Assembly (NCBI GenBank): GCA_048887165.1
Contig: JBHLJZ010000009.1
Coordinates: 693-64,692 of the forward strand
DNA length: 64,000 bases
Direction of reading: 5' to 3'
Source: Candidatus Hodarchaeota archaeon
GTDB lineage: Archaea; Asgardarchaeota; Lokiarchaeia; Sigyniarchaeales; SOKP01
How positions within the stretch are numbered: position 1 is the stretch's first letter; each line of letters opens with the position of its first letter. The notes below the pieces were generated by a model. That model saw only the letters and a program-made list of their open reading frames with translations, was not told the origin of the DNA and did not search any database. This document shows positions 444 through 11,596 of the stretch, piece by piece. Both the position numbers and the translations under genes were made by a program.

Positions 444-1694
444 TTAAAGATTAAGTTTTTTCTTCTTTTCAAATAATTGTTTTAACTCATCTAAGACTTG
501 CATTCTAGAATCTCCACGACGAGATGCTAATCCCTGTTGATTAGGATTTTGAATTTCGATAGGAATTCCACTCTGGGCGACCTGAAATGCTCCACTCTCA
601 ATTGCTCTTAATCTCGTATCTAATTCATTCAGCTGTCTAGAGATACTTTCAGAAAGGCGAATAACAGCATTCATAGTTTCTTCCAAGGTTTTTCCTAACC
701 CCTCAACCTTTCTTAATGTTGGATTTGTCAGCGAATCTACTGATTTCATTACATCTTTAATATATTTCGAAAATTGAGGTTCATTTGAAATTAATGAAAA
801 AATTGATGTGAGATACGCTTCATAATCAAATCCATGTTGATTTAATAAAGTATTTAAATTATCTTTTAGGAGCTCAATATTAAGAAGAATTTCAGGATCT
901 CGTTTTAGATCTGGATCATATTTATGAATATAAATTAAGATAAATGGGTTTTCCTCTAAAATATTTAAAATTTCTAATACTTCTTCAAAATATTCAAAAG
1001 ATTCAGCATATCTATCTGAATCTTGCACATCAATTACGTATATTAATAAATCTAATTGTAAAAAATACTTTTCTGGATTTTCAAGATACTTGTTTCGATA
1101 TTTTAATTGACCTCCCATATCCCATATAAATAAATCTAACTCAGATTCCTCTGTTTTGATGAAATGCCGAACAACACCTTTGGTTGGCTTTAATGATGCT
1201 AAGTCTGTTATTCCTAATTTTCCTCCAAATTTAGTTAAGATTGCTGTTTTTCCCGCATTATCCAAACCAATAACTACAACTTTTTGCGCAATTTTTTCAA
1301 TATCTTCTTGTTCTTCTTTTATATTTGCAATAATTGAACTTATCGTAATAGCTTTTTTCAGATTTTTTTCTAAGTCAGGATTTTGTTCTATTAGAGTTTC
1401 TAACTTTTCATTCAACTTTTCCTGTAATTCGGCTGCTTTTATGGGATCTTTTGTAGATTCAATGTTCTTTAACCTTTCAAAAGGGTTTTCTTTATCCAAT
1501 TTTGAGGCTTCCTCTATATTAGAGACATCTAATAGCTCTTTTAATACTTTTGCTTCGCTTTTTTCTAAAAATTTGTAGGAATATATTGGAAGTTTTAACA
1601 CGTCCTCTAATAGCTTTAAATTCTTAGTTTTTACTACGCTAGAATCTAGAAATTTAGAAAAAATGCTGATTATATTAGTTATATCCGTTGTCAT
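444..1694 (-). CDS. Arf-family small GTPase core with long N- and C-terminal helical/coiled-coil extensions
   Basis: Residues ~138-300 carry the P-loop VVVIGLDNAGKT (Arf signature GLDxAGKT), a G2 Thr (KPTKG), switch II WDMGGQ, and HKYD in place of NKxD. About 135 aa N-terminal and 110 aa C-terminal are charged helical sequence. Confidence 0.75.
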   Translation of the reverse strand: MTTDITNIISIFSKFLDSSVVKTKNLKLLEDVLKLPIYSYKFLEKSEAKVLKELLDVSNIEEASKLDKENPFERLKNIESTKDPIKAAELQEKLNEKLETLIEQNPDLEKNLKKAITISSIIANIKEEQEDIEKIAQKVVVIGLDNAGKTAILTKFGGKLGITDLASLKPTKGVVRHFIKTEESELDLFIWDMGGQLKYRNKYLENPEKYFLQLDLLIYVIDVQDSDRYAESFEYFEEVLEILNILEENPFILIYIHKYDPDLKRDPEILLNIELLKDNLNTLLNQHGFDYEAYLTSIFSLISNEPQFSKYIKDVMKSVDSLTNPTLRKVEGLGKTLEETMNAVIRLSESISRQLNELDTRLRAIESGAFQVAQSGIPIEIQNPNQQGLASRRGDSRMQVLDELKQLFEKKKKLNL

Positions 1695-1915: not shown

Positions 1916-2836
1916 ATGCCACCAAAATTTGAAGAAAATGGGTTTTTTGACGAGAAAGAAGAAGAATCGTGTTGTGATTCACCTAAGATTTCAGAAGAAG
2001 ACGGATATTATGTTTGTTTAAATTGTGGTTCTGTTTATAGTCGAATTCTTGATGATTCGCCGCGTAGAGCTTTTACTCAGGAAGAAATCCAGAAAAGGAA
2101 AAGCAATGAGAGGGTCTATAGTCCAATTGGGCCACGTACAATCATTAGGGGTAGTCGTGATGCTCGGGGGACATTGTTAAGTCCAAAATATAAATCAAAA
2201 TTTAATAGATTAGCTAAGATTCATAGATCTCTTACCACTAGTTATGAACGGAATTTATGGATAGCTTTACCGAATTTACAGAGATTACAAAAAAGATTAG
2301 GGATTCCAGATACCGTTGCTGAAGATGCCCTTAGAATTTACACTCAAACTGTTAAAAAAAAATTAACTATGGGACGTAGCATTGATACATTATTATCAGC
2401 TTCAATATTTTGTGCTTTAAGGGTTCATGGAATTCCTCGTACAGTCGAAGAGATAACTAAAGTGGCCCAGATTCCTAAAAAGAAGGTTATTAAAAGCTAT
2501 AGACTGATTTTAATGGAAGTTTTACCTAATCTAAATCTAAAAGTTAAGCACTTCACCCCAGATCGTTATGTAGACAAATTTAATGATGAATTAAAGCTTT
2601 CCATGCAATGTAGAAATATAGCTGTAAAACTAATAGAAACGGCAAAAGAGAATGGATTTAATTCTGCTGGAAAAGATCCGAAAGGTATTGCCGCGGCAGC
2701 AATATATATAGGCTCAAAAATGTGTAATGAAAATCGAACTCAAAAAGAGATTAGCAAATTAGCAAGAGTTACTGAAGTTACTTTAAGAATGAGAGTAAAA
2801 GACCTTCAAAAATTTGCCAATATGGTTAAACTGTAA
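1916..2836 (+). CDS. tfb: Transcription initiation factor B (TFIIB homologue)
   Basis: N-terminal Zn ribbon CCDSPKI...VCLNCGSVY. Two cyclin-fold repeats (ASIFCALRVHGIPRTVEEI and GIAAAAIYIGSKMCNENRTQKEIS). 306 aa. Confidence 0.9.
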   Translation: MPPKFEENGFFDEKEEESCCDSPKISEEDGYYVCLNCGSVYSRILDDSPRRAFTQEEIQKRKSNERVYSPIGPRTIIRGSRDARGTLLSPKYKSKFNRLAKIHRSLTTSYERNLWIALPNLQRLQKRLGIPDTVAEDALRIYTQTVKKKLTMGRSIDTLLSASIFCALRVHGIPRTVEEITKVAQIPKKKVIKSYRLILMEVLPNLNLKVKHFTPDRYVDKFNDELKLSMQCRNIAVKLIETAKENGFNSAGKDPKGIAAAAIYIGSKMCNENRTQKEISKLARVTEVTLRMRVKDLQKFANMVKL

Positions 2837-2842
2837 AAATTT

Positions 2843-5800
2843 TTATTTTAAATTTAAGTCGATATCTATAAAGATTTTTTCTTGTTCAAATAATGGTAAT
2901 ATTTCTAACAAATCTCGGATTTTGGGAGAAAATTTTTCAATCTTATACAAAATCACATCAAGAATGAAGATAATACACCTAATGAAGTAAGTATCTTCAA
3001 CCAATTTTTTATTTAAGCCTAAGGAATTTAAGACTTCGTTTATATTTGTTCTTATTAATACAGTTAATACACCTGCTTTCAAAAGTGCTAAACCATGAAG
3101 AAGTAGCAAAAGGGAGCTAATTTGAAAATCTTGTCTTCTTGACATAGATTTAGCTAATTCAAGATATTTTTCTCCTGCCACCTTAAATTGGTTATTCTCA
3201 AGGAGAGTTAAAACCTCTTTATATAAAAGTCTTTTCATAGCACTTCGTTTATTTAATATTTCAAGCCTTTCTCTTCTTATATCCCCCATTTGTTGTTTTA
3301 AATAGGCATATTTTTGTTCTTGTTCAACCATTATTCTATTTTTTTCTCCTTTTTCTTCTCTTGATAAGATTTCCTTTTCTTCTAATACTCCTTGCTTTCC
3401 CGGTAAAAAGGATTCTATGAGGTCTAGTTCTGGTTCTTCTAAAGCTAATTTTTCAAGAAAGCCTGTAATTGCTAATTCAATTAAATCATCCATATTATTC
3501 TCTATAATAAAAAATATTTCTTTCATCAACTGAATTTCTGGTAAATCTTCAAAATCACTTTTATATTTTTCAAATTTGCTTAATTTATCAAAAAAAGTTG
3601 ACTTTGCTATTGCTATATCTTTTAATTTTAGCAATATAAATGTTGCTAAAATTAAACTTATAGCTGCTTGTTTAAAGAATTTTTTATCTATGAGAGTGTT
3701 GATTGTATCTAAATAATCTTTTGCGGCCATAGTCAATTTATTATTTGATAAATCCTCTATTGCTAATCGCCAATATTGATTTTTCATTAGTTTTCTTTTT
3801 GCAATATCTTGCTTCTCTTTACGAATTTGATCTGCCAAATTTTTTATAGCTTCTGTTATATTTTTGACTTCTAAAATGTCTAATTCTTTTTTCTCTTTTT
3901 TATAGGCTTTACCAACAAAATCATAGAGTAATTTAACTTCTTCCTCAAAGAGGGGTAAATTTTCAAAAAATAGCAAAGATTCCTTAAATTTAGTATCATC
4001 TTGGAATTTTCTTATATCAAGAATATATTCTATTAAAGTAACGGGGTAAGTTTCTGAAAATGATTTACCTAAACCAGATAATTCTTTTTTTGTATTTATT
4101 AACATTTTATTAACTTCGTTAATTTTGCCTTGGATGATTAAAATTAAAGATAATATCGCTAATGATACTCCAGCTAAATTATATAGTTTAATTTTTATTA
4201 AGCGATCAATGCTTTCTCGATATTTTTTTATAGCATCTTCTAATTCTTTTTTTACTAAATTATCTATAGCTTCTGTAAAATAACTTCTCTTTAAAGCCCT
4301 TCTTTGTTTTAATTCACGTTCTCTCTCATTCAATGCATCCCTTGTTCTTTTTTGAATAATAGAAAACTTTTCTTTAAGTATTTCTCCTTTATAAATATCT
4401 TTAACCTTTTTTGATTCTGCTTCTATTTTAGCTGCTTCTGCTTTAGTAATACTTTTATGTAATTCTGTTTGGATCCATTTATCCTCTATCAGATCATTAA
4501 TTGCATTTGCAGTAGACAAATCTTCTAAGTTAATATAAATTTCTGTTATTTTTTTATAAATATCATCTACGTTTATTTTATCTTTTTCAAGATAAGCAGA
4601 AGATATATCAATTGCTTTTTTAATGAGGGTTATTGCTTTATTTATTCCCTGTTCATTTTCTTGGATATTTACAGTTCGAATAGCTTCTTCTTTTATTACC
4701 CCGATATAAAGCTCACTAAGTTCTTTAGATTGTTCATATAGCATTTGATCTCTATAAATTCTACTTGCATTGGCGAATGTTCTATCATTTTTATCAAAAT
4801 CTCCTTCTTCTCTTAAATCTTTTAACATTTTAATAAAAACAGGGAATTTTTTTTCTAAGTAAACTTTTTTAGTTCCTTCAGTTAGATCAAAATAGAGAGA
4901 GAAAAATTCATCAAATTTTTTGCCTACCAATAAAACGTCCAAAGCCTGGGTAAGAAGCTGATTTTGATCGTCATATTTTCCTATATTTTTTAAAAAATCA
5001 GCTTGAATTTTAATTCGATCCGCTGCTTTTAAATAATCATTACTTTCTATTAGAATATTAGCCTCTTTAATTATTTGAGTATTTATTTCTGTTATGATTT
5101 TTTGTTCTTCCCCTAAAAAGTCATATATAATATTTACTCCTCTCTGAATATTCTCAGTAATTTCTCGCTTTCTTAATTCTTTACTTTTCTCTTCCGCGAT
5201 TAAACTTTCTTTCGTCAGCTTCTTCTTTAAAGATAACGAGTTTAATTTATTAATTAAGTTTGAAGCCATACCAAAATTGTATATCTCTAAAAATAATCTT
5301 ATTAGTTTAGCCAATAATTTATCAATGTCTTTTTTTTTCACTCCATAAGATTCCCATAAATTTTCTATTTCATCAAAGGTCTGTTTGGCAGCGTATTTTT
5401 CTTCATTATTAATTTGAATTTCTAAAATTCGTGCTAAAACCTCAACTAATTTAGGTGTAAACTGATCTACAATTTCGAAAAGTCCTTCTTTTTGGTAAAC
5501 TGCAATTGATTGATATAGTTGATCCTTAGCACTAAAATAATTTTCAATACTAACGAGATAATCAACTGCTGCTAAAATCTTGTTAGAAATTTCATTTAAA
5601 ATTATAATAATTCCTTCATGAGGTAAGCTATTAACCACTTGAAACGCTTTTTCGACGTTGCAAGCAGATACCCAAGCATTTATAGAATTTCTAAATGCTT
5701 CATTTCTTAAACTTCGGTCTCTAATTTCTATTGCTGCAAATTGAGCAGCAGCTAAATATTGTACAGCAGCTTGATCATATAATTTTTTGTTAAATAGGCG

Positions 5801-6574
5801 ATGTCCCTCAGAATTCATATGTGCTATATGTAATTTTTTAAAGTTTTCAGATTTTTTCTTGTCTATCTCTTCTAAAATCTTAGACGCTTCTAAATATAAA
5901 TTAACTTTCGAAAAAAGGATCGCAGATTGCTCACTAATTATATAATATTCTTGCTTATTAAAAATTTCTGCGATCAAACCTGCCTTTTTTATCGCATGTG
6001 CAGCATAGTAATATTCTTTCTGCTTAAAATATATGTTTGCTAATTGAATATAGATTGGAAATCTCATCCAAGCATTTTCAATGTTTAAGGGAGTATCTCC
6101 AGTAATCATTGCCATACATAAACATTCAATAGCTTGGTGAAAATCTCTCGGAGGTAAATTAACAAAGGCTTCTAAATGAGGATATTTTATCCAAAGATTT
6201 TCTAATAATTCATTAATTGATATGGGTAATAACCCATCTTGATTATAATACATAATAACTGTCGGGATATTTCTCTTTACGGAGTCAATAATAGGTATAA
6301 GAATTTCAAAAAATTCATTCTCTTCTTGTTTTAAAGGATTTAAAAAGTAAATAATTCCATCAACTATAGGTATTACTTCATCAAATTCAGCTTTAATAAC
6401 ATTTGTTATACAATCTATTTCCAAATCACAAACATCTTCAAAAACGTTAAATTCTTTATACCATTCAATATAAGACTCCTTAAATTCTCCTCCTTCTTGA
6501 AATGATATCACGCAGTATTGAGAAATTGCCTCAACGTCCAATCCAAACACTAAAACTTTAAAGATATAACGCAT
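2843..6574 (-). CDS. 1243-aa protein: degenerate Arf-like (pseudo-GTPase) N-domain plus long helical-repeat (TPR/solenoid-like) and coiled-coil body
   Basis: N-terminal ~170 aa parallels the neighbouring Arf core. KVLVFGLDVEAIS matches KVVVIGLDNAGKT, VDGIIYFLNP matches LDLLIYVIDV, and TVIMYYNQD matches ILIYIHKYD. It lacks GK[ST] and DxxGQ. The rest is uniformly helical, amphipathic and repeat-like. Confidence 0.55.
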   Translation of the reverse strand: MRYIFKVLVFGLDVEAISQYCVISFQEGGEFKESYIEWYKEFNVFEDVCDLEIDCITNVIKAEFDEVIPIVDGIIYFLNPLKQEENEFFEILIPIIDSVKRNIPTVIMYYNQDGLLPISINELLENLWIKYPHLEAFVNLPPRDFHQAIECLCMAMITGDTPLNIENAWMRFPIYIQLANIYFKQKEYYYAAHAIKKAGLIAEIFNKQEYYIISEQSAILFSKVNLYLEASKILEEIDKKKSENFKKLHIAHMNSEGHRLFNKKLYDQAAVQYLAAAQFAAIEIRDRSLRNEAFRNSINAWVSACNVEKAFQVVNSLPHEGIIIILNEISNKILAAVDYLVSIENYFSAKDQLYQSIAVYQKEGLFEIVDQFTPKLVEVLARILEIQINNEEKYAAKQTFDEIENLWESYGVKKKDIDKLLAKLIRLFLEIYNFGMASNLINKLNSLSLKKKLTKESLIAEEKSKELRKREITENIQRGVNIIYDFLGEEQKIITEINTQIIKEANILIESNDYLKAADRIKIQADFLKNIGKYDDQNQLLTQALDVLLVGKKFDEFFSLYFDLTEGTKKVYLEKKFPVFIKMLKDLREEGDFDKNDRTFANASRIYRDQMLYEQSKELSELYIGVIKEEAIRTVNIQENEQGINKAITLIKKAIDISSAYLEKDKINVDDIYKKITEIYINLEDLSTANAINDLIEDKWIQTELHKSITKAEAAKIEAESKKVKDIYKGEILKEKFSIIQKRTRDALNERERELKQRRALKRSYFTEAIDNLVKKELEDAIKKYRESIDRLIKIKLYNLAGVSLAILSLILIIQGKINEVNKMLINTKKELSGLGKSFSETYPVTLIEYILDIRKFQDDTKFKESLLFFENLPLFEEEVKLLYDFVGKAYKKEKKELDILEVKNITEAIKNLADQIRKEKQDIAKRKLMKNQYWRLAIEDLSNNKLTMAAKDYLDTINTLIDKKFFKQAAISLILATFILLKLKDIAIAKSTFFDKLSKFEKYKSDFEDLPEIQLMKEIFFIIENNMDDLIELAITGFLEKLALEEPELDLIESFLPGKQGVLEEKEILSREEKGEKNRIMVEQEQKYAYLKQQMGDIRRERLEILNKRSAMKRLLYKEVLTLLENNQFKVAGEKYLELAKSMSRRQDFQISSLLLLLHGLALLKAGVLTVLIRTNINEVLNSLGLNKKLVEDTYFIRCIIFILDVILYKIEKFSPKIRDLLEILPLFEQEKIFIDIDLNLK

Positions 6575-6785: not shown

Positions 6786-7448
6786 TTGGATTATTTGGAA
6801 AGGAATTATAAAATTGTTCAGGAAAGAATGATACAGCAAATGGAGAATTCCCTCGAATTAGGAAAAAGTTTAATCGATACTGAACTAGATATGGGAATTC
6901 TAAATTTCCTAATTAGACCTATAGTTAAAGCATTTTATGAGTATTGGGCTCAAAATGATGCACGATCCGGTACTTTAAAACAGATTAAAATTACCTTAGA
7001 TTCCGGAAAAAGACTATTACTTGAGGGAAATTCAGATGAAAATTTTAATAAAATACTTGAAGAAAATTTTCCTAAATATTTTAAGGCTGATCAAACTTCA
7101 CTTCAATGTAATAAAAAACATAAGAATTATAAAAGATTGAAACAGGTGGCGAAGGAGACTTTTATCAATTATCTTAAGGAATTAAAAATACTTCTCAGTG
7201 TTAATGAAGATGTGAATGATTATGGTGATTTATGTAGAGTAGCATTTAGGAATCAAGAAGAGGCTAAAAAAAATTTAATGAAACAAATCCATTATACTGA
7301 TGAAGGAATTAAAATCATTGAAGAAGATCCATCAATACTTAACATCGCAGTCGGAAGAAACTTAATTGTAAAAGCATTAAGAAAAGGTTTCGAACAAACA
7401 AAAAAAGATTTTACTGAAGCGCTTAATGATACATATAATCAAAAATAA
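6786..7448 (+). CDS. Hypothetical protein, tandem paralogue A (unknown family)
   Basis: 220-aa ORF with a TTG start. About half its positions are identical to the next ORF along the full length (DYLERNYKI, GKSLID.ELD.G.LNF, GTL.QIKITL, QC.K.HKNY, GRN.I.K.LRKGFE.TKK). Confidence 0.7.
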   Translation: MDYLERNYKIVQERMIQQMENSLELGKSLIDTELDMGILNFLIRPIVKAFYEYWAQNDARSGTLKQIKITLDSGKRLLLEGNSDENFNKILEENFPKYFKADQTSLQCNKKHKNYKRLKQVAKETFINYLKELKILLSVNEDVNDYGDLCRVAFRNQEEAKKNLMKQIHYTDEGIKIIEEDPSILNIAVGRNLIVKALRKGFEQTKKDFTEALNDTYNQK

Positions 7449-7511
7449 TTAAACTATTAATTTTTAAAATATTCTATTATATAGCTTATAAAAATAGGCG
7501 GAGATTAGAAA

Positions 7512-8171
7512 GTGGATTACTTGGAAAGAAATTACAAAATTCTGGAAGAAAAAATGATTGATCAGATGAATATTTCCCTTGGTTATGGAAAATCTTTAAT
7601 TGATTCAGAATTAGATGCGGGAGTATTAAATTTTGTAGTTAAACCAGTTGTTAAATCGTTTTATAAATATTGGTCTGACAAAGATGCCAGTATAGGTACT
7701 CTCGAACAAATCAAAATAACCTTAAACTCAGCTAAAGAATTTTTAGTAAGTGGGGATGGCTCAAAAGAACAATTGGATAAAATTGTTGATCGAAATTTTC
7801 CTATTTACTTAGAGAATGACCAAACAGATAGACAATGTAAAAAAGATCATAAGAATTATCCTGAATTGAAAAGAATCACTAAAAAATGTTTTATTACCCA
7901 GGTTGAAGAAAGTATTTTATTTTTGAAAGTAAAGGATGAAATTAATGATTATAACGAATTATCTAGGGCGACATTTCATACAAAAGAAAAAGCTTATCAA
8001 GCTTTAAAGCGTCAATTAGATTATAATGACGCAGGTATCTCAATTGTGGAGAAAGATGATTCGATTTTAAAAGTACCAACAGGAAGAAATATAATATTAA
8101 AAGTTTTACGTAAAGGATTTGAGCTCACTAAAAAAAAATTAATTGAAGAATTGGATTTGATAATTAGTTAA
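7512..8171 (+). CDS. Hypothetical protein, tandem paralogue B (unknown family)
   Basis: 219-aa ORF with a GTG start preceded by GGCGGAG. Collinear paralogue of 6786..7448. Confidence 0.7.
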   Translation: MDYLERNYKILEEKMIDQMNISLGYGKSLIDSELDAGVLNFVVKPVVKSFYKYWSDKDASIGTLEQIKITLNSAKEFLVSGDGSKEQLDKIVDRNFPIYLENDQTDRQCKKDHKNYPELKRITKKCFITQVEESILFLKVKDEINDYNELSRATFHTKEKAYQALKRQLDYNDAGISIVEKDDSILKVPTGRNIILKVLRKGFELTKKKLIEELDLIIS

Positions 8172-9259
8172 TGGTTTCTAATTTTTCCAATGCTATGCCA
8201 GAATTAAACGTTAAAAAGAATAAGAAAAATGTTCTAAGAACAATTTTTATGAACATTTTAATAGTTATTTTTATTGTTATGTGTTACTTCTATCTTTCAG
8301 AAGCAATTGGCTCAATCTCTTATTATTATATTATTGAAACTGAATTTTCAATAATATTTGGTGGAACTCTATTTCTTTTTACATTTTTTTCCGTTTTAGC
8401 AGGTCCAATTCAATCCTTAATTTCTGGTTTTTTAGCAGAATTGTTTTATCAAATTATATTTTATAGATTTATCTATTTTGAATGGTGCATTATAGTCGGT
8501 TTATATGGTTTAATTTGTGGTATATATAGATACAAACCGTTGAAATATCATGAGAGTATGAAAATCTATTATACTTTCCTAATTTTAGTTATCGCATCTT
8601 TTATTTTGACTTTTTTAATTATTATTATCCAAGCTACTACTATGAATTTTGGTTTGAATTTCGAAGAAATATTTGTTAATTTTGGATTCAAATTCATAAT
8701 ACAGGCATTAATTTCAACTACTTTTTTGGTTCCTCTCTGCCTAGTAATTTATGATAGAATATTATCATCTAAAGAACGTTATTTATATTATTTATTGCTG
8801 ACACATCATCCTATTTCAGCAAGTGATCATACTTTTTATTTTCAATTTGGAAGAACTAAGATATTTTTTTGTTCACGATGCTCAGGAGTGATAATTGGGG
8901 GAATACTTGCAGTGTTCTTTACTCATTTAATTGAATTGTTTTATGGTACAATGATTAATGCTGAAATAGCTTTATTGGTAATCATTTTTTTCCCAATCCC
9001 AGGTTTAATAGATTGGGGCACTCAAAGATTATTATTAAGGAAAAGTACAACGGAATCCCGTTTATTAACTGGATTTATAATAGGAGTTGCACTACATTTT
9101 CTCACTTTCACCTATAATTATTATTTTATAACAATTTTCTTAATTACATTATATTTTGGAATCCTTTTCCTACTGATTTATTTAGGTCATAAAAAAGAAA
9201 TGAAAAAGTTAAGCCAGAAAATGGATCAATTATCGTCGGAAGAAATTAATGAAATATAA
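8171..9259 (+). CDS. Polytopic membrane protein; C-terminal half DUF2085-like
   Basis: The ATG overlaps the upstream stop (TAATG at 8169-8173). About 10 hydrophobic segments. The C-terminal half has the DUF2085-type motif HTFYFQFGRTKIFFCSRCSGVIIGG. The N-terminal half is Gly-rich TM helices (ECF-S-like; weak). Confidence 0.6.
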   Translation: MVSNFSNAMPELNVKKNKKNVLRTIFMNILIVIFIVMCYFYLSEAIGSISYYYIIETEFSIIFGGTLFLFTFFSVLAGPIQSLISGFLAELFYQIIFYRFIYFEWCIIVGLYGLICGIYRYKPLKYHESMKIYYTFLILVIASFILTFLIIIIQATTMNFGLNFEEIFVNFGFKFIIQALISTTFLVPLCLVIYDRILSSKERYLYYLLLTHHPISASDHTFYFQFGRTKIFFCSRCSGVIIGGILAVFFTHLIELFYGTMINAEIALLVIIFFPIPGLIDWGTQRLLLRKSTTESRLLTGFIIGVALHFLTFTYNYYFITIFLITLYFGILFLLIYLGHKKEMKKLSQKMDQLSSEEINEI

Positions 9260-9276: not shown

Positions 9277-9795
9277 TTGTTTAATATGAATAATATAATT
9301 TATATTCATGGTCTTCAAAGTTCAGGGGAAGGCTTTAAAGGCAGACTATTTCAAAGAGAGATCTCTGACATATTGACACCAACCTTTCATGAATTTGATG
9401 CTGATATTAGCATTCAATCTCTACTTAACAAGCGAATGGAACAGCTAATATCAATTTTAGATAAAAAAGGAAAATGGGTAATCATTGGCTCTAGTTTTGG
9501 TGGTTTGATGGGAGTTTTATATACTTTAAGCCACCCAGATAAAATAATTAAATTAATTTTATTAGCACCTTTCTTAAATAATAAATTTCTCAACCCTGAT
9601 AATTTTAAATTCTGTAGTGTTCCAGTAATTGTATATCATGGAAAAAACGATCAAATTATTCCCTATAAACATTCAATTAAAAGAGCAAAAGAATTATTTA
9701 CTAATTTAAAGTATAATTTAGTAGATGATGATCATTTACTTCATAATACAGTACAATCTATAGATTGGAAAAAATTAGTTGAGTGTTTAATCTAA
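9277..9795 (+). CDS. Small alpha/beta-hydrolase (YqiA/UPF0227-like esterase)
   Basis: IYIHGLQSSGEG start, nucleophile elbow GSSFGG, a late Asp (GKNDQIIP) and His (DDDHLL). The start may be the ATG at 9286. Confidence 0.65.
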   Translation: MFNMNNIIYIHGLQSSGEGFKGRLFQREISDILTPTFHEFDADISIQSLLNKRMEQLISILDKKGKWVIIGSSFGGLMGVLYTLSHPDKIIKLILLAPFLNNKFLNPDNFKFCSVPVIVYHGKNDQIIPYKHSIKRAKELFTNLKYNLVDDDHLLHNTVQSIDWKKLVECLI

Positions 9796-9958: not shown

Positions 9959-11596
9959 ATGGTTAAAAAATTGTATGTATGTCGTGAGTGTTCATATGTC
10001 TTCCCAGAAGAACTATCTGAGCTTATTGAAAATAAAGTTCAGGTATTTTGCGAGATGTGTGGAACTCCTTTTACATTAGCAGGCGTAGAGTTTAAAAGAA
10101 CGTCGGATAAATTTCAAGAAAGACCAGACATGCCTTATCCTAGATATGGGATAACTAAAAAAGAAAAGTCTGGTTTAAGTGAAGCTATAAAGACATTAAA
10201 TAAATTATCATCTATCCCATTAATTATTTTCTCTGGAATAGTATTGGGATTAAGCTTTACTACATATTATAGTAGTATATTAGGCGAAAACTGGATTATT
10301 AATCTTTTTGTTCATTTAATTATTGGTTTTAGTGCAATATTAATAGTTATTTATGATCTAAATTATATCTCACCAAAAATTAGAGAAGAAAAATACGATG
10401 AGATTGCTCTTGATGCGTTCTGTTACGGAATTCTGGGATGTATCATATTTGGCACAGGAGTAATTCTCTTGATTAAAGGAGTGTTAATTTTAATTCATGT
10501 TGCTTTTCATTCTGAAAGACCTGAACATAAGATTTATGATTTTGGAATCAAGTTAAAGAATTCAATAAACAATTTTTCTGCTAAAGCTGGGTTTGTTATA
10601 ATTTTTCTTGTTATTTGGAGTATTCTCATCGGAGAGATCGATATTAATTCTATAGTTGAAGGATTTTACTTTATTCAAGGTATTTTAGCTACTTTGGAAG
10701 ACTGGCTGCAGTTAATAATTATTATTGCTATTGTAGCAATATTTTGTTTATTCCCAGTTATTTTGCTTTTAATTGATCTCAAATGGAAAAAGAAAATCAG
10801 AAAAAAACAAATTTTTACATTTGGTGACGCTCTTCGCGTCTTTATAGTGGGTATTATTTGTTCTACTTTCTTTGGAATAGGTATATTTATTCTCCTAAAA
10901 GGAATCTTAATATTCTTCCTTTTCGTTGGCAAACCAATAGATGCAACGAAAGCAGTAGTTATTGGAGTAGAAAAGGAGGAACAAGAGAAAGAAAAATTCA
11001 TATCTACGTACAAGGTTAGTGAAAAGTCACCTAAAGAGAAAATAGAAGAAAAGGAACTAGAATTTAAAGAACCTGAAACTTTACAAAAAGAGCCGGAGAA
11101 AGCCTATATTGATGAAAAAGTAGAAACAAAAAAACCAGTTTCACCTGAGAAGGTTGAAGAAAAAGTAGAAGAAATTTTTCCTAAAGATGAGATAGTTGAA
11201 AAGAAAATAGAAGAAAAAGATACTAAATTAAGGCTTCATGAATCGCTATTACCCGTAAGGGATGAAAAAGATAAAAAATTAGTTAAAGAATATTTCTCAA
11301 AGATTTTTAATGTTCTCTCCAAAAATATAAGAGAACAGATTTTGGCACTTGAAATTCCCAAAAAAGATAAAAAAGAATTATTAAAAGAGTTAGCATTCCT
11401 AACAGAAGTAGAACAGGCGAAATATATTGAAGCTATTAGTATTCTATATAGAGAAATACCTCAAAAATTAATCCAAAGAATAAGGAAACTTAAAAATGTA
11501 AAACCTCAGTATTATGATAAGATTGTAGAACAATTAAAGTTTATGGATATCGATGAACAAATAGAATTTGTTCGATTTTTAGAAGATAATGCCTAA
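9959..11596 (+). CDS. Zn-ribbon membrane protein with E/K-rich linker and helical C-terminal domain
   Basis: N-terminal CRECS...CEMCG ribbon. About 8 TM helices with a duplicated FG.G..LL.KG.LI hairpin motif. E/K-rich low-complexity stretch. Helical C-terminal ~130 aa. Confidence 0.5.
   Translation: MVKKLYVCRECSYVFPEELSELIENKVQVFCEMCGTPFTLAGVEFKRTSDKFQERPDMPYPRYGITKKEKSGLSEAIKTLNKLSSIPLIIFSGIVLGLSFTTYYSSILGENWIINLFVHLIIGFSAILIVIYDLNYISPKIREEKYDEIALDAFCYGILGCIIFGTGVILLIKGVLILIHVAFHSERPEHKIYDFGIKLKNSINNFSAKAGFVIIFLVIWSILIGEIDINSIVEGFYFIQGILATLEDWLQLIIIIAIVAIFCLFPVILLLIDLKWKKKIRKKQIFTFGDALRVFIVGIICSTFFGIGIFILLKGILIFFLFVGKPIDATKAVVIGVEKEEQEKEKFISTYKVSEKSPKEKIEEKELEFKEPETLQKEPEKAYIDEKVETKKPVSPEKVEEKVEEIFPKDEIVEKKIEEKDTKLRLHESLLPVRDEKDKKLVKEYFSKIFNVLSKNIREQILALEIPKKDKKELLKELAFLTEVEQAKYIEAISILYREIPQKLIQRIRKLKNVKPQYYDKIVEQLKFMDIDEQIEFVRFLEDNA

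Follow-up and report, generated by a model that had tools for sequence, protein, structure and literature searches.

A predicted Ras-fold pseudo-GTPase head on a five-module TPR solenoid in a giant Lokiarchaeial protein

The DNA considered here (the window) is a stretch of 64,000 nucleotides from contig JBHLJZ010000009.1 of assembly GCA_048887165.1, deposited as Candidatus Hodarchaeota archaeon, and our subject is the giant gene at 2843..6574 on its minus strand, which encodes a protein of 1,243 amino acids (aa) beginning MRYIFK. We propose, with a probability of roughly three in four, that this protein carries a pseudo-GTPase head on a tetratricopeptide-repeat (TPR) solenoid of five modules and serves as a nucleotide-independent cytoplasmic scaffold, with p220-family proteins and a DUF2085 membrane protein as partners rather than the nearby Arf-like GTPase. 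The open reading frame lies exactly where the initial annotation of the window had placed it, and its MRYIFK start is kept across the family. The gene is monocistronic, divergent from the p220 reading frame (6786) and convergent with a TFIIB gene ending at 2836. The first homologue search returned 263 proteins, nearly all of 1,235-1,256 aa with at least 45% identity to the giant protein, and all 263 are annotated 'hypothetical protein'.

Residues 1-160 (6095..6574, minus strand) are predicted to form a domain with the Ras-superfamily fold and without the G1-G5 motifs, as judged from an AlphaFold (AF2) model, a Foldseek search and a 112-member alignment. All structural statements refer to AlphaFold models; for this part of the protein, residues 1-215 were modelled from the 112-sequence family alignment, with a predicted local distance difference test score (pLDDT) of 93.9 and a predicted template modelling score (pTM) of 0.90. 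The model runs β1 (2-10), α1 (14-25), β2 (35-44), β3 (47-56), α2 (64-70), β4 (73-78), α3 (83-98), β5 (105-109), α4 (120-130), β6 (135-138) and α5 (142-158), which is the topology of a small GTPase: a six-stranded sheet with an antiparallel β2-β3 hairpin and five helices. Compared with the PDB by Foldseek, the N-domain model gave 1,238 matches at E≤1e-3, the best 50 of which were all Ras, Rab, Rap or Ral proteins (KRAS, Rab8, HRas and Rap1 included), with E values of 1.5e-7 to 1.8e-6, a probability of 1.00, identities of 12-18% and target-normalised template modelling (TM) scores of 0.61-0.73. The small-GTPase fold that the initial annotation had read into the N-terminus, with AlphaFold and Foldseek as the proposed check, is thus borne out by both.

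The fold is kept, and the motifs are not. By the established definitions of G1-G5, GxxxxGK[ST], GK[ST] and [NT]KxD were found in none of the 112 aligned family members, and DxxG is likewise absent from all 112. After β1 the family reads G-[L or gap]-[D/N/E], with α1 already beginning at residue 14; the β1-α1 connection, which corresponds to the P-loop, is a three-residue turn in the predicted structure, and alignment to Ras and Rab needs a deletion of 4-5 residues exactly at this point. Farther along the family alignment, [V/A/C]-I-T-D follows β3 in place of DxxG, Y-D-x-x-G follows β5 in place of NKxD, and an invariant N139 follows β6 in place of SAK. The most divergent members inspected, at about 26% identity overall, show the same losses, which makes the dead state ancestral to the family. 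Motif loss and a pseudo-GTPase character had both been claimed from the window protein; the loss proves real and family-wide, and the pseudo-GTPase reading stands.

Mean identity to the window protein is 60% for the N-domain, 72% for residues 161-235 and 46-52% for the modules that follow, making the N-domain and residues 161-235 the best-conserved parts of the giant protein. Judged from these alignments, the N-domain is not decaying: absence of the motifs from every member examined, together with the collapsed P-loop, argues for an ancestral pseudo-GTPase maintained by purifying selection, and the domain most probably binds no nucleotide. The segment GDTPLNIENAWMRFP (residues 159-173; 6056..6100, minus strand), which joins the G-like domain to the first helix of the solenoid, is nearly invariant, with G159, P162, L163, E166-R171 and P173 invariant or at least 90% conserved. 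Since the 215-aa model containing this junction reaches a pTM of 0.90, the prediction suggests that the head and the first helices form one rigid unit.

Similarity to GTPases at the level of sequence is far fainter. Searches of Pfam, NCBIfam and PDB sequences found no GTPase match, whether with the full-length protein, residues 1-180, 32 diverse N-domains or the N-domain profile, and the small-GTPase models (Ras, Arf, Roc, MMR_HSR1 and small_GTP) gave no match to the 32 members even at E≤10; comparison of the N-terminus with Arf and small-GTPase models, which the initial annotation had recommended, thus yielded nothing in Pfam or NCBIfam. An N-domain hidden Markov model (HMM) run against 1.84 billion cluster representatives found no bona fide GTPase and no relative with intact motifs; it matched 48 proteins, one by a spurious repeat and the others being family members or fragments. 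A BLASTP comparison of the N-domain with the neighbour (the GTPase at 444..1694) returned nothing significant. Nevertheless, the three block matches to this neighbour that had been noticed by eye (KVLVFGLD/KVVVIGLD, VDGIIYFLNP/LDLLIYVIDV and PTVIMYY/PFILIYIH, N-domain first) were recovered in the same register by profile-profile alignment with hhalign, as a weak signal with P=0.008, which a broader profile of the N-domain brings to P=0.0024. This similarity is above noise: reversing the template gives P=0.25, and of 20 templates with shuffled columns the best reaches P=0.037. The collinear alignment is obtained in local mode only and fails in global mode.

Does this similarity make the head Arf-derived, as the initial annotation held? 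On such a reading the head would be a degenerate Arf-family duplicate, possibly of the neighbouring gene, and would work with the Arf-like GTPase by a logic like that of coats and adaptors, which we consider unlikely. The collinear alignment to the neighbour's G domain (P from 0.008 to 0.0024) does favour it, but at identical settings the N-domain profile aligned equally well or better with a Lokiarchaeial Rab-like GTPase from loci L080 and L081 (P=9.2e-4) and with HRAS (P=9.7e-4) than with the Arf-like neighbour family (P=2.4e-3), whereas ARF1 stayed at noise level (P=0.19, non-collinear) beside an EngB-like GTPase (P=0.12); the HRAS and ARF1 template sequences were entered by hand. The GLD that follows β1 in the window protein, and which had been taken as an Arf hallmark, is not a feature of the family, being present in 40 of the 112 members and disrupted by a one-residue deletion in 45. 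AGKT and GGQ are absent from all 112. No N-terminal amphipathic helix of Arf type occurs in the AF2 model, because β1 begins at residue 2, and no Arf protein is found among the best 50 of the 1,238 structural matches. Neither in sequence nor in structure, then, is the N-domain closer to Arf than to other branches of the Ras superfamily. Origin from Arf is not supported, and Ras/Rab-like descent is at least as likely.

Gene order speaks to the same alternative from both sides. The giant gene and the gene for the 416-aa GTPase (GTPase416) lie 1.1 kb apart, an arrangement shared by 71 of 81 crown-clade loci, and a partnership of the two had been implied by the initial annotation. In all six deep-lineage loci examined (L082-L087), however, the GTPase416 and TFIIB genes are missing from within 10 kb of the giant gene, and in L080 and L081 a gene for a 184-aa Rab-like GTPase (in L081 at about 10483, plus strand) follows TFIIB at the position of GTPase416. 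In addition, the solenoid resembles generic TPR proteins and not those of coats or adaptors, as described below. Any likeness of the whole to eukaryotic Arf and coat or adaptor logic is speculation.

We rate as equally improbable a non-homologous head, that is, a Rossmann-like or flavodoxin-like α/β domain (receiver-like, for example) whose topology has converged on that of a GTPase. Such convergence would sit well with the lack of a significant sequence match to any GTPase family, and one of the 32 members gave a match of 0.062 to a TadZ-like receiver domain. Nevertheless, the antiparallel β2-β3 hairpin and the full order of six strands and five helices are those of small GTPases, each of the best 50 of the 1,238 Foldseek matches is a small GTPase at a probability of 1.00, and three independent small-GTPase templates align collinearly with the N-domain profile at scores better than those of all shuffled controls.

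That the head is instead a cryptic, active NTPase with an atypical site, in a STAND-like NTPase-TPR signalling switch, seems very improbable: the layout does resemble that of STAND proteins and several charged or polar positions are conserved (D72, K100, R101, E135 and N139), but no member has a Walker A-like motif, the β1-α1 loop has three residues, no NACHT, NB-ARC or AAA Pfam match occurs, and the fold is of Ras type rather than STAND/AAA+. Assignment to the STAND NTPases was accordingly rejected, neither Walker A nor Walker B being present and no NACHT, NB-ARC or AAA+ match having been found, as was assignment to the Roco proteins, there being no COR domain and no intact Roc. The predicted fold is Ras-like and neither a STAND or NACHT domain nor an intact NTPase site occurs, so that neither of the outcomes named in the initial annotation as refuting its reading came about.

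The remainder of the protein is a solenoid. A model of residues 1-1200 (pLDDT 84.5, pTM 0.42) is all-helical from residue 161 to at least 1200, the end of the modelled part, and the low pTM means that inter-module geometry is uncertain. It contains very long helices at 447-510 (64 residues), 724-760 and 1072-1116, and low-confidence linkers at 717-727, 893-899 and 1060-1070. Foldseek matches listed for this long model include Ski3/TTC37, Ctr9, Naa15, OGT, IFT-A subunits, LGN, Tom70 and APC subunits, at 9-16% identity to the TPR scaffolds. Local probabilities are 0.97-1.00, but global TM scores do not exceed 0.12, or reach 0.25 when normalised to short targets such as LGN, and the likeness is therefore one to TPR solenoids in general. 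A weak, sub-threshold Pfam TPR_2 match falls at residues 174-198 of the window protein, and several homologues carry precomputed Pfam TPR_1 or TPR_2 matches. The long helical solenoid of the initial annotation is therefore upheld, at about 1,080 aa. A coat or adaptor homologue was considered and rejected: no coat or adaptin entry is among the 50 Foldseek matches listed, although IFT-A subunits are, and the model contains no β-propeller, being all-α apart from the G-like head.

Self-comparison of the sequence adds a feature that had not been described before, in that the solenoid is, on this evidence, built of five tandemly duplicated modules. Profile self-alignment pairs residues 499-1168 with 251-985 (E 4e-22), and in the same way residues 697-847 pair with 1049-1200 (E 2e-9), which marks out about five tandem modules. 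All on the minus strand, the first TPR-like helices (residues 161-235; 5870..6094), the best-conserved segment of the protein, are followed by module M1 (about residues 236-445; 5240..5869) and by M2 (about 446-716; 4427..5239), which opens with the 64-residue helix. After the low-confidence linker at 717-727 come M3 (about 724-892; 3899..4405), M4 (about 900-1059; 3398..3877) and M5 (about 1071-1243; 2846..3364). M3, M4 and M5 align end to end at 24-26% identity; each begins with a basic KR.a[LM]K..Y stretch and closes on an acidic, LPLFEEE-like one, which reads LPLFEQE in M5. Short deep-branching members of 1,092-1,123 aa seem to lack M4, and a tblastn comparison in which M4 and M5 of the window protein both map to one stretch of L083 suggests that these members have four modules.

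To which proteins might such a platform bind? In the crown clade (81 loci) the giant gene belongs to a conserved block comprising genes for a helix-turn-helix (HTH) protein, p545, a hydrolase, DUF2085, p219, p220, the giant protein, TFIIB, GTPase416 and PAP2. TFIIB is present in 77 of these loci, p220 in 76, p219 in 75, GTPase416 in 71 and DUF2085 in 69, many of the absences being contig ends. In the window, p220 (6786-7448) and p219 (7512-8171) are tandem paralogues, 52% identical, on the plus strand (6786..8171) and divergent from the giant gene; the gene for the polytopic DUF2085 membrane protein (8171..9259, plus strand; Pfam DUF2085, 6.1e-14) starts in overlap with the p219 stop codon and is followed by that for a small α/β-hydrolase (9277-9795, plus strand). 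These four genes probably form one operon.

The deep lineages separate the constant members of this block from the others. All four deep loci with intact upstream sequence keep a p220-family gene and a DUF2085 gene, so that a DUF2085 gene lies near the giant gene in crown and deep lineages alike; the deep p220-family genes (L082, L083, L084 and L087) encode proteins 32-41% identical to p220 and p219, a better conservation than the 26% of the giant protein across the same depth. Because deep loci retain p220 and DUF2085 and not GTPase416, the persistent association is that of the giant gene, p220 and DUF2085. PAP2 comes immediately after the giant gene in L083, an arrangement consistent with later insertion of TFIIB and GTPase416. 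Searches of PDB profiles and Pfam gave no informative match for the p220 family, or for a second family, of about 143 aa, that occurs at the deep loci, and the match of the membrane protein to DUF2085 is uninformative as well.

Taken together, these results suggest a mechanism in which a head of Ras fold, its phosphate-binding loop collapsed and no nucleotide site remaining, would be docked rigidly by the junction GDTPLNIENAWMRFP onto a TPR-type α-solenoid whose five helical modules, of 160-270 aa, arose by tandem duplication. If eukaryotic pseudo-GTPases are a guide, the dead G domain could act as a docking head of fixed form and the modules as platforms for multivalent binding, and the giant protein would then be a nucleotide-independent interaction hub. 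Its likeliest partners would be the p220-family proteins, encoded divergently from it, and the DUF2085 membrane protein, and not the nearby Arf-like GTPase; insofar as the conserved divergent gene set points to p220 and DUF2085, the giant protein may hence act near the membrane.

Several considerations weigh against this proposal. No statistically significant sequence link joins the N-domain to any GTPase family, so that the case for homology rather than convergence of the fold depends on structure prediction and weak profile scores. The failure of the N-domain to bind nucleotide is likewise deduced from motif loss and the predicted structure, and with a pTM of 0.42 the predicted arrangement of the modules relative to one another is uncertain. 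Function and partners are assigned through guilt by association, with p220, the ~143-aa family and DUF2085 being themselves uncharacterised. Finally, the ten genes of the crown-clade block may have stayed together because the genomes rearrange slowly and not because the genes are linked in function.

A bolder extension of the scaffold proposal, which we regard as unlikely, would make the giant protein the core of a Lokiarchaeia-specific membrane-associated machine, in which the constitutively locked Ras-fold head, the five-module TPR platform and the p220-family proteins assemble on DUF2085 to organise trafficking or the architecture of membranes or protrusions. Such a machine would amount to an independent archaeal version of the pairing of G domain and solenoid known from eukaryotes, with the switch hard-wired.

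The family appears confined to Lokiarchaeia/Promethearchaeia as far as these searches see. With one genome scanned per GTDB species, relatives of the giant protein turned up in 117 genomes, almost all titled Promethearchaeota or Promethearchaeia (Lokiarchaeota including Helarchaeales, in NCBI taxonomy), and cluster look-ups of the most divergent members also returned Promethearchaeota or Lokiarchaeia names. Outside Lokiarchaeia the family was not detected, in searches that leaned on the sensitivity of HMMER to a fast-evolving protein. One project contributes a few metagenome-assembled genomes (MAGs) that bear the labels Heimdall-, Hod-, Hermod-, Thor- or Odin-archaeota. We treat these labels as unreliable, because the sequences are interspersed among Lokiarchaeota-labelled ones in a quick neighbour-joining gene tree and share the same ten-gene synteny (L011, L040, L043, L048, L052, L072 and L073). 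True presence of the family in Heimdall-, Hod-, Thor- or Odin-archaea was rejected on the same grounds, the MAGs nesting among Lokiarchaeota with identical synteny. Labels are inconsistent even within the window, where 100% matches of two adjacent genes are labelled Heimdallarchaeota (P0001) and Hodarchaeota (P0121).

Comparison with known systems places the giant protein near several of them. With the Ras-superfamily small GTPases (Ras, Rab and Rap) it shares the predicted fold and element order, TM scores of up to 0.73 and weak collinear profile similarity; it differs from them in lacking the five G motifs, in a P-loop shorter by 4-5 residues, in having no Pfam or PDB sequence match, and in carrying about 1,080 aa of helical array fused to its head. 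The same superfamily fold relates it to the Arf family and the neighbouring 416-aa protein, as do the GLD of a minority of its members and a β4 motif, DG[IV][IV]Y.[LI].P, that resembles β4 of Arf, Sar and Rag, but the N-terminal amphipathic helix, GLDxAGKT, WDxGGQ, NKxD and a Pfam Arf match are all lacking. A continuous TPR-type α-solenoid is common to the giant protein and to the long TPR scaffolds Ski3/TTC37, Ctr9, Naa15, OGT (its TPR part) and LGN; none of these has a G-like head, and the five large duplicated modules, long basic helices and acidic LPLFEEE ends set the giant protein apart. STAND NTPases with TPR sensors (MalT/AfsR type) also place an NTPase-like head before TPR repeats, but the head here is of Ras type, without Walker A or B and without a NACHT or NB-ARC match. 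Because the defining features of each group were looked for and found wanting, we place the giant protein outside the Arf family, the active small GTPases, the STAND NTPases and the coats and adaptors.

A functional parallel is offered by the eukaryotic pseudo-GTPases. In CENP-M, p190RhoGAP (pG1 and pG2) and the dynein light intermediate chain, a Ras-like fold that has lost its motifs serves as a structural or interaction module. The giant protein has no recognisable sequence similarity to these and differs from them in being archaeal and restricted to Lokiarchaeia and in bearing a C-terminal TPR array. It would work like a scaffold that contains a pseudo-GTPase, in a combination with a TPR solenoid that is undescribed in the literature found.

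Large expansions of small GTPases are a known trait of Asgard archaea. Surveys built on sequence profiles are blind to a G domain without motifs, given that the present family yields no Pfam match to its G domain. The literature searched offered no description of an Asgard or other archaeal pseudo-GTPase or of a GTPase-solenoid fusion, and surveys of Asgard GTPases were found instead (bioRxiv 10.1101/2024.02.28.582541; PMC10933270; bioRxiv 10.1101/2020.10.19.343400), the first of them covering the Asgard ArfR and Arf-like GTPases. The suggestion in the initial annotation that this is not a described archaeal family holds in this respect, as it does for the lack of annotation. If the predictions are correct, Lokiarchaeia number among their GTPases catalytically dead members with a structural role, class-wide and strongly conserved, a trait so far seen as characteristic of signalling and cytoskeletal complexes in eukaryotes, and the set of giant protein, p220 and DUF2085 offers a testable entry into uncharacterised Lokiarchaeial cell biology. 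Its weight for eukaryogenesis is limited, because the family was undetected outside Lokiarchaeia and has no identifiable eukaryotic orthologue.

Among the neighbours, the 416-aa Arf-like GTPase (444..1694, minus strand) has its motifs GLDNAGKT, DMGGQ and HKYD intact, with matches to Pfam Arf (5.7e-19) and Gtr1_RagA (3.5e-18). It combines an Arf-like P-loop, GLDNAGKT, with the G4 motif HKYD, in which H for N is typical of Rag/Gtr proteins, and carries an N-terminal extension of 135 aa and a helical C-terminal one of about 100 aa. The nearest PDB sequences are 8yl2_A (5e-29), Arl3 (3e-12) and RagA (8e-7), and the closest solved structures, 8yl2 and 8zla, are entries titled 'GTP-binding proteins'; a literature search for 8YL2 and 8ZLA found no paper. 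Between this gene and the giant gene lies that for TFIIB (1916-2836, plus strand), whose product is 81-99% identical across loci where the giant protein is only 40-77% identical.

In the deep lineages, genes of the ~143-aa family lie directly upstream of the giant gene, divergent from it and beside an HTH regulator, all on the minus strand (L082 9452-9883, L083 9352-9777, L084 9378-9800, L085 9379-9819 and L087 9441-9878). The family has an invariant TG.C.....C.WEG.F motif; neither the window nor loci L001-L081 contain a member. In the crown-clade block, p545 (9959-11596, plus strand) encodes a protein of 545 aa whose N-terminus bears a zinc ribbon (CRECSY...CEMCG) and whose C-terminal half is repetitive and K/E-rich, with several transmembrane segments predicted.

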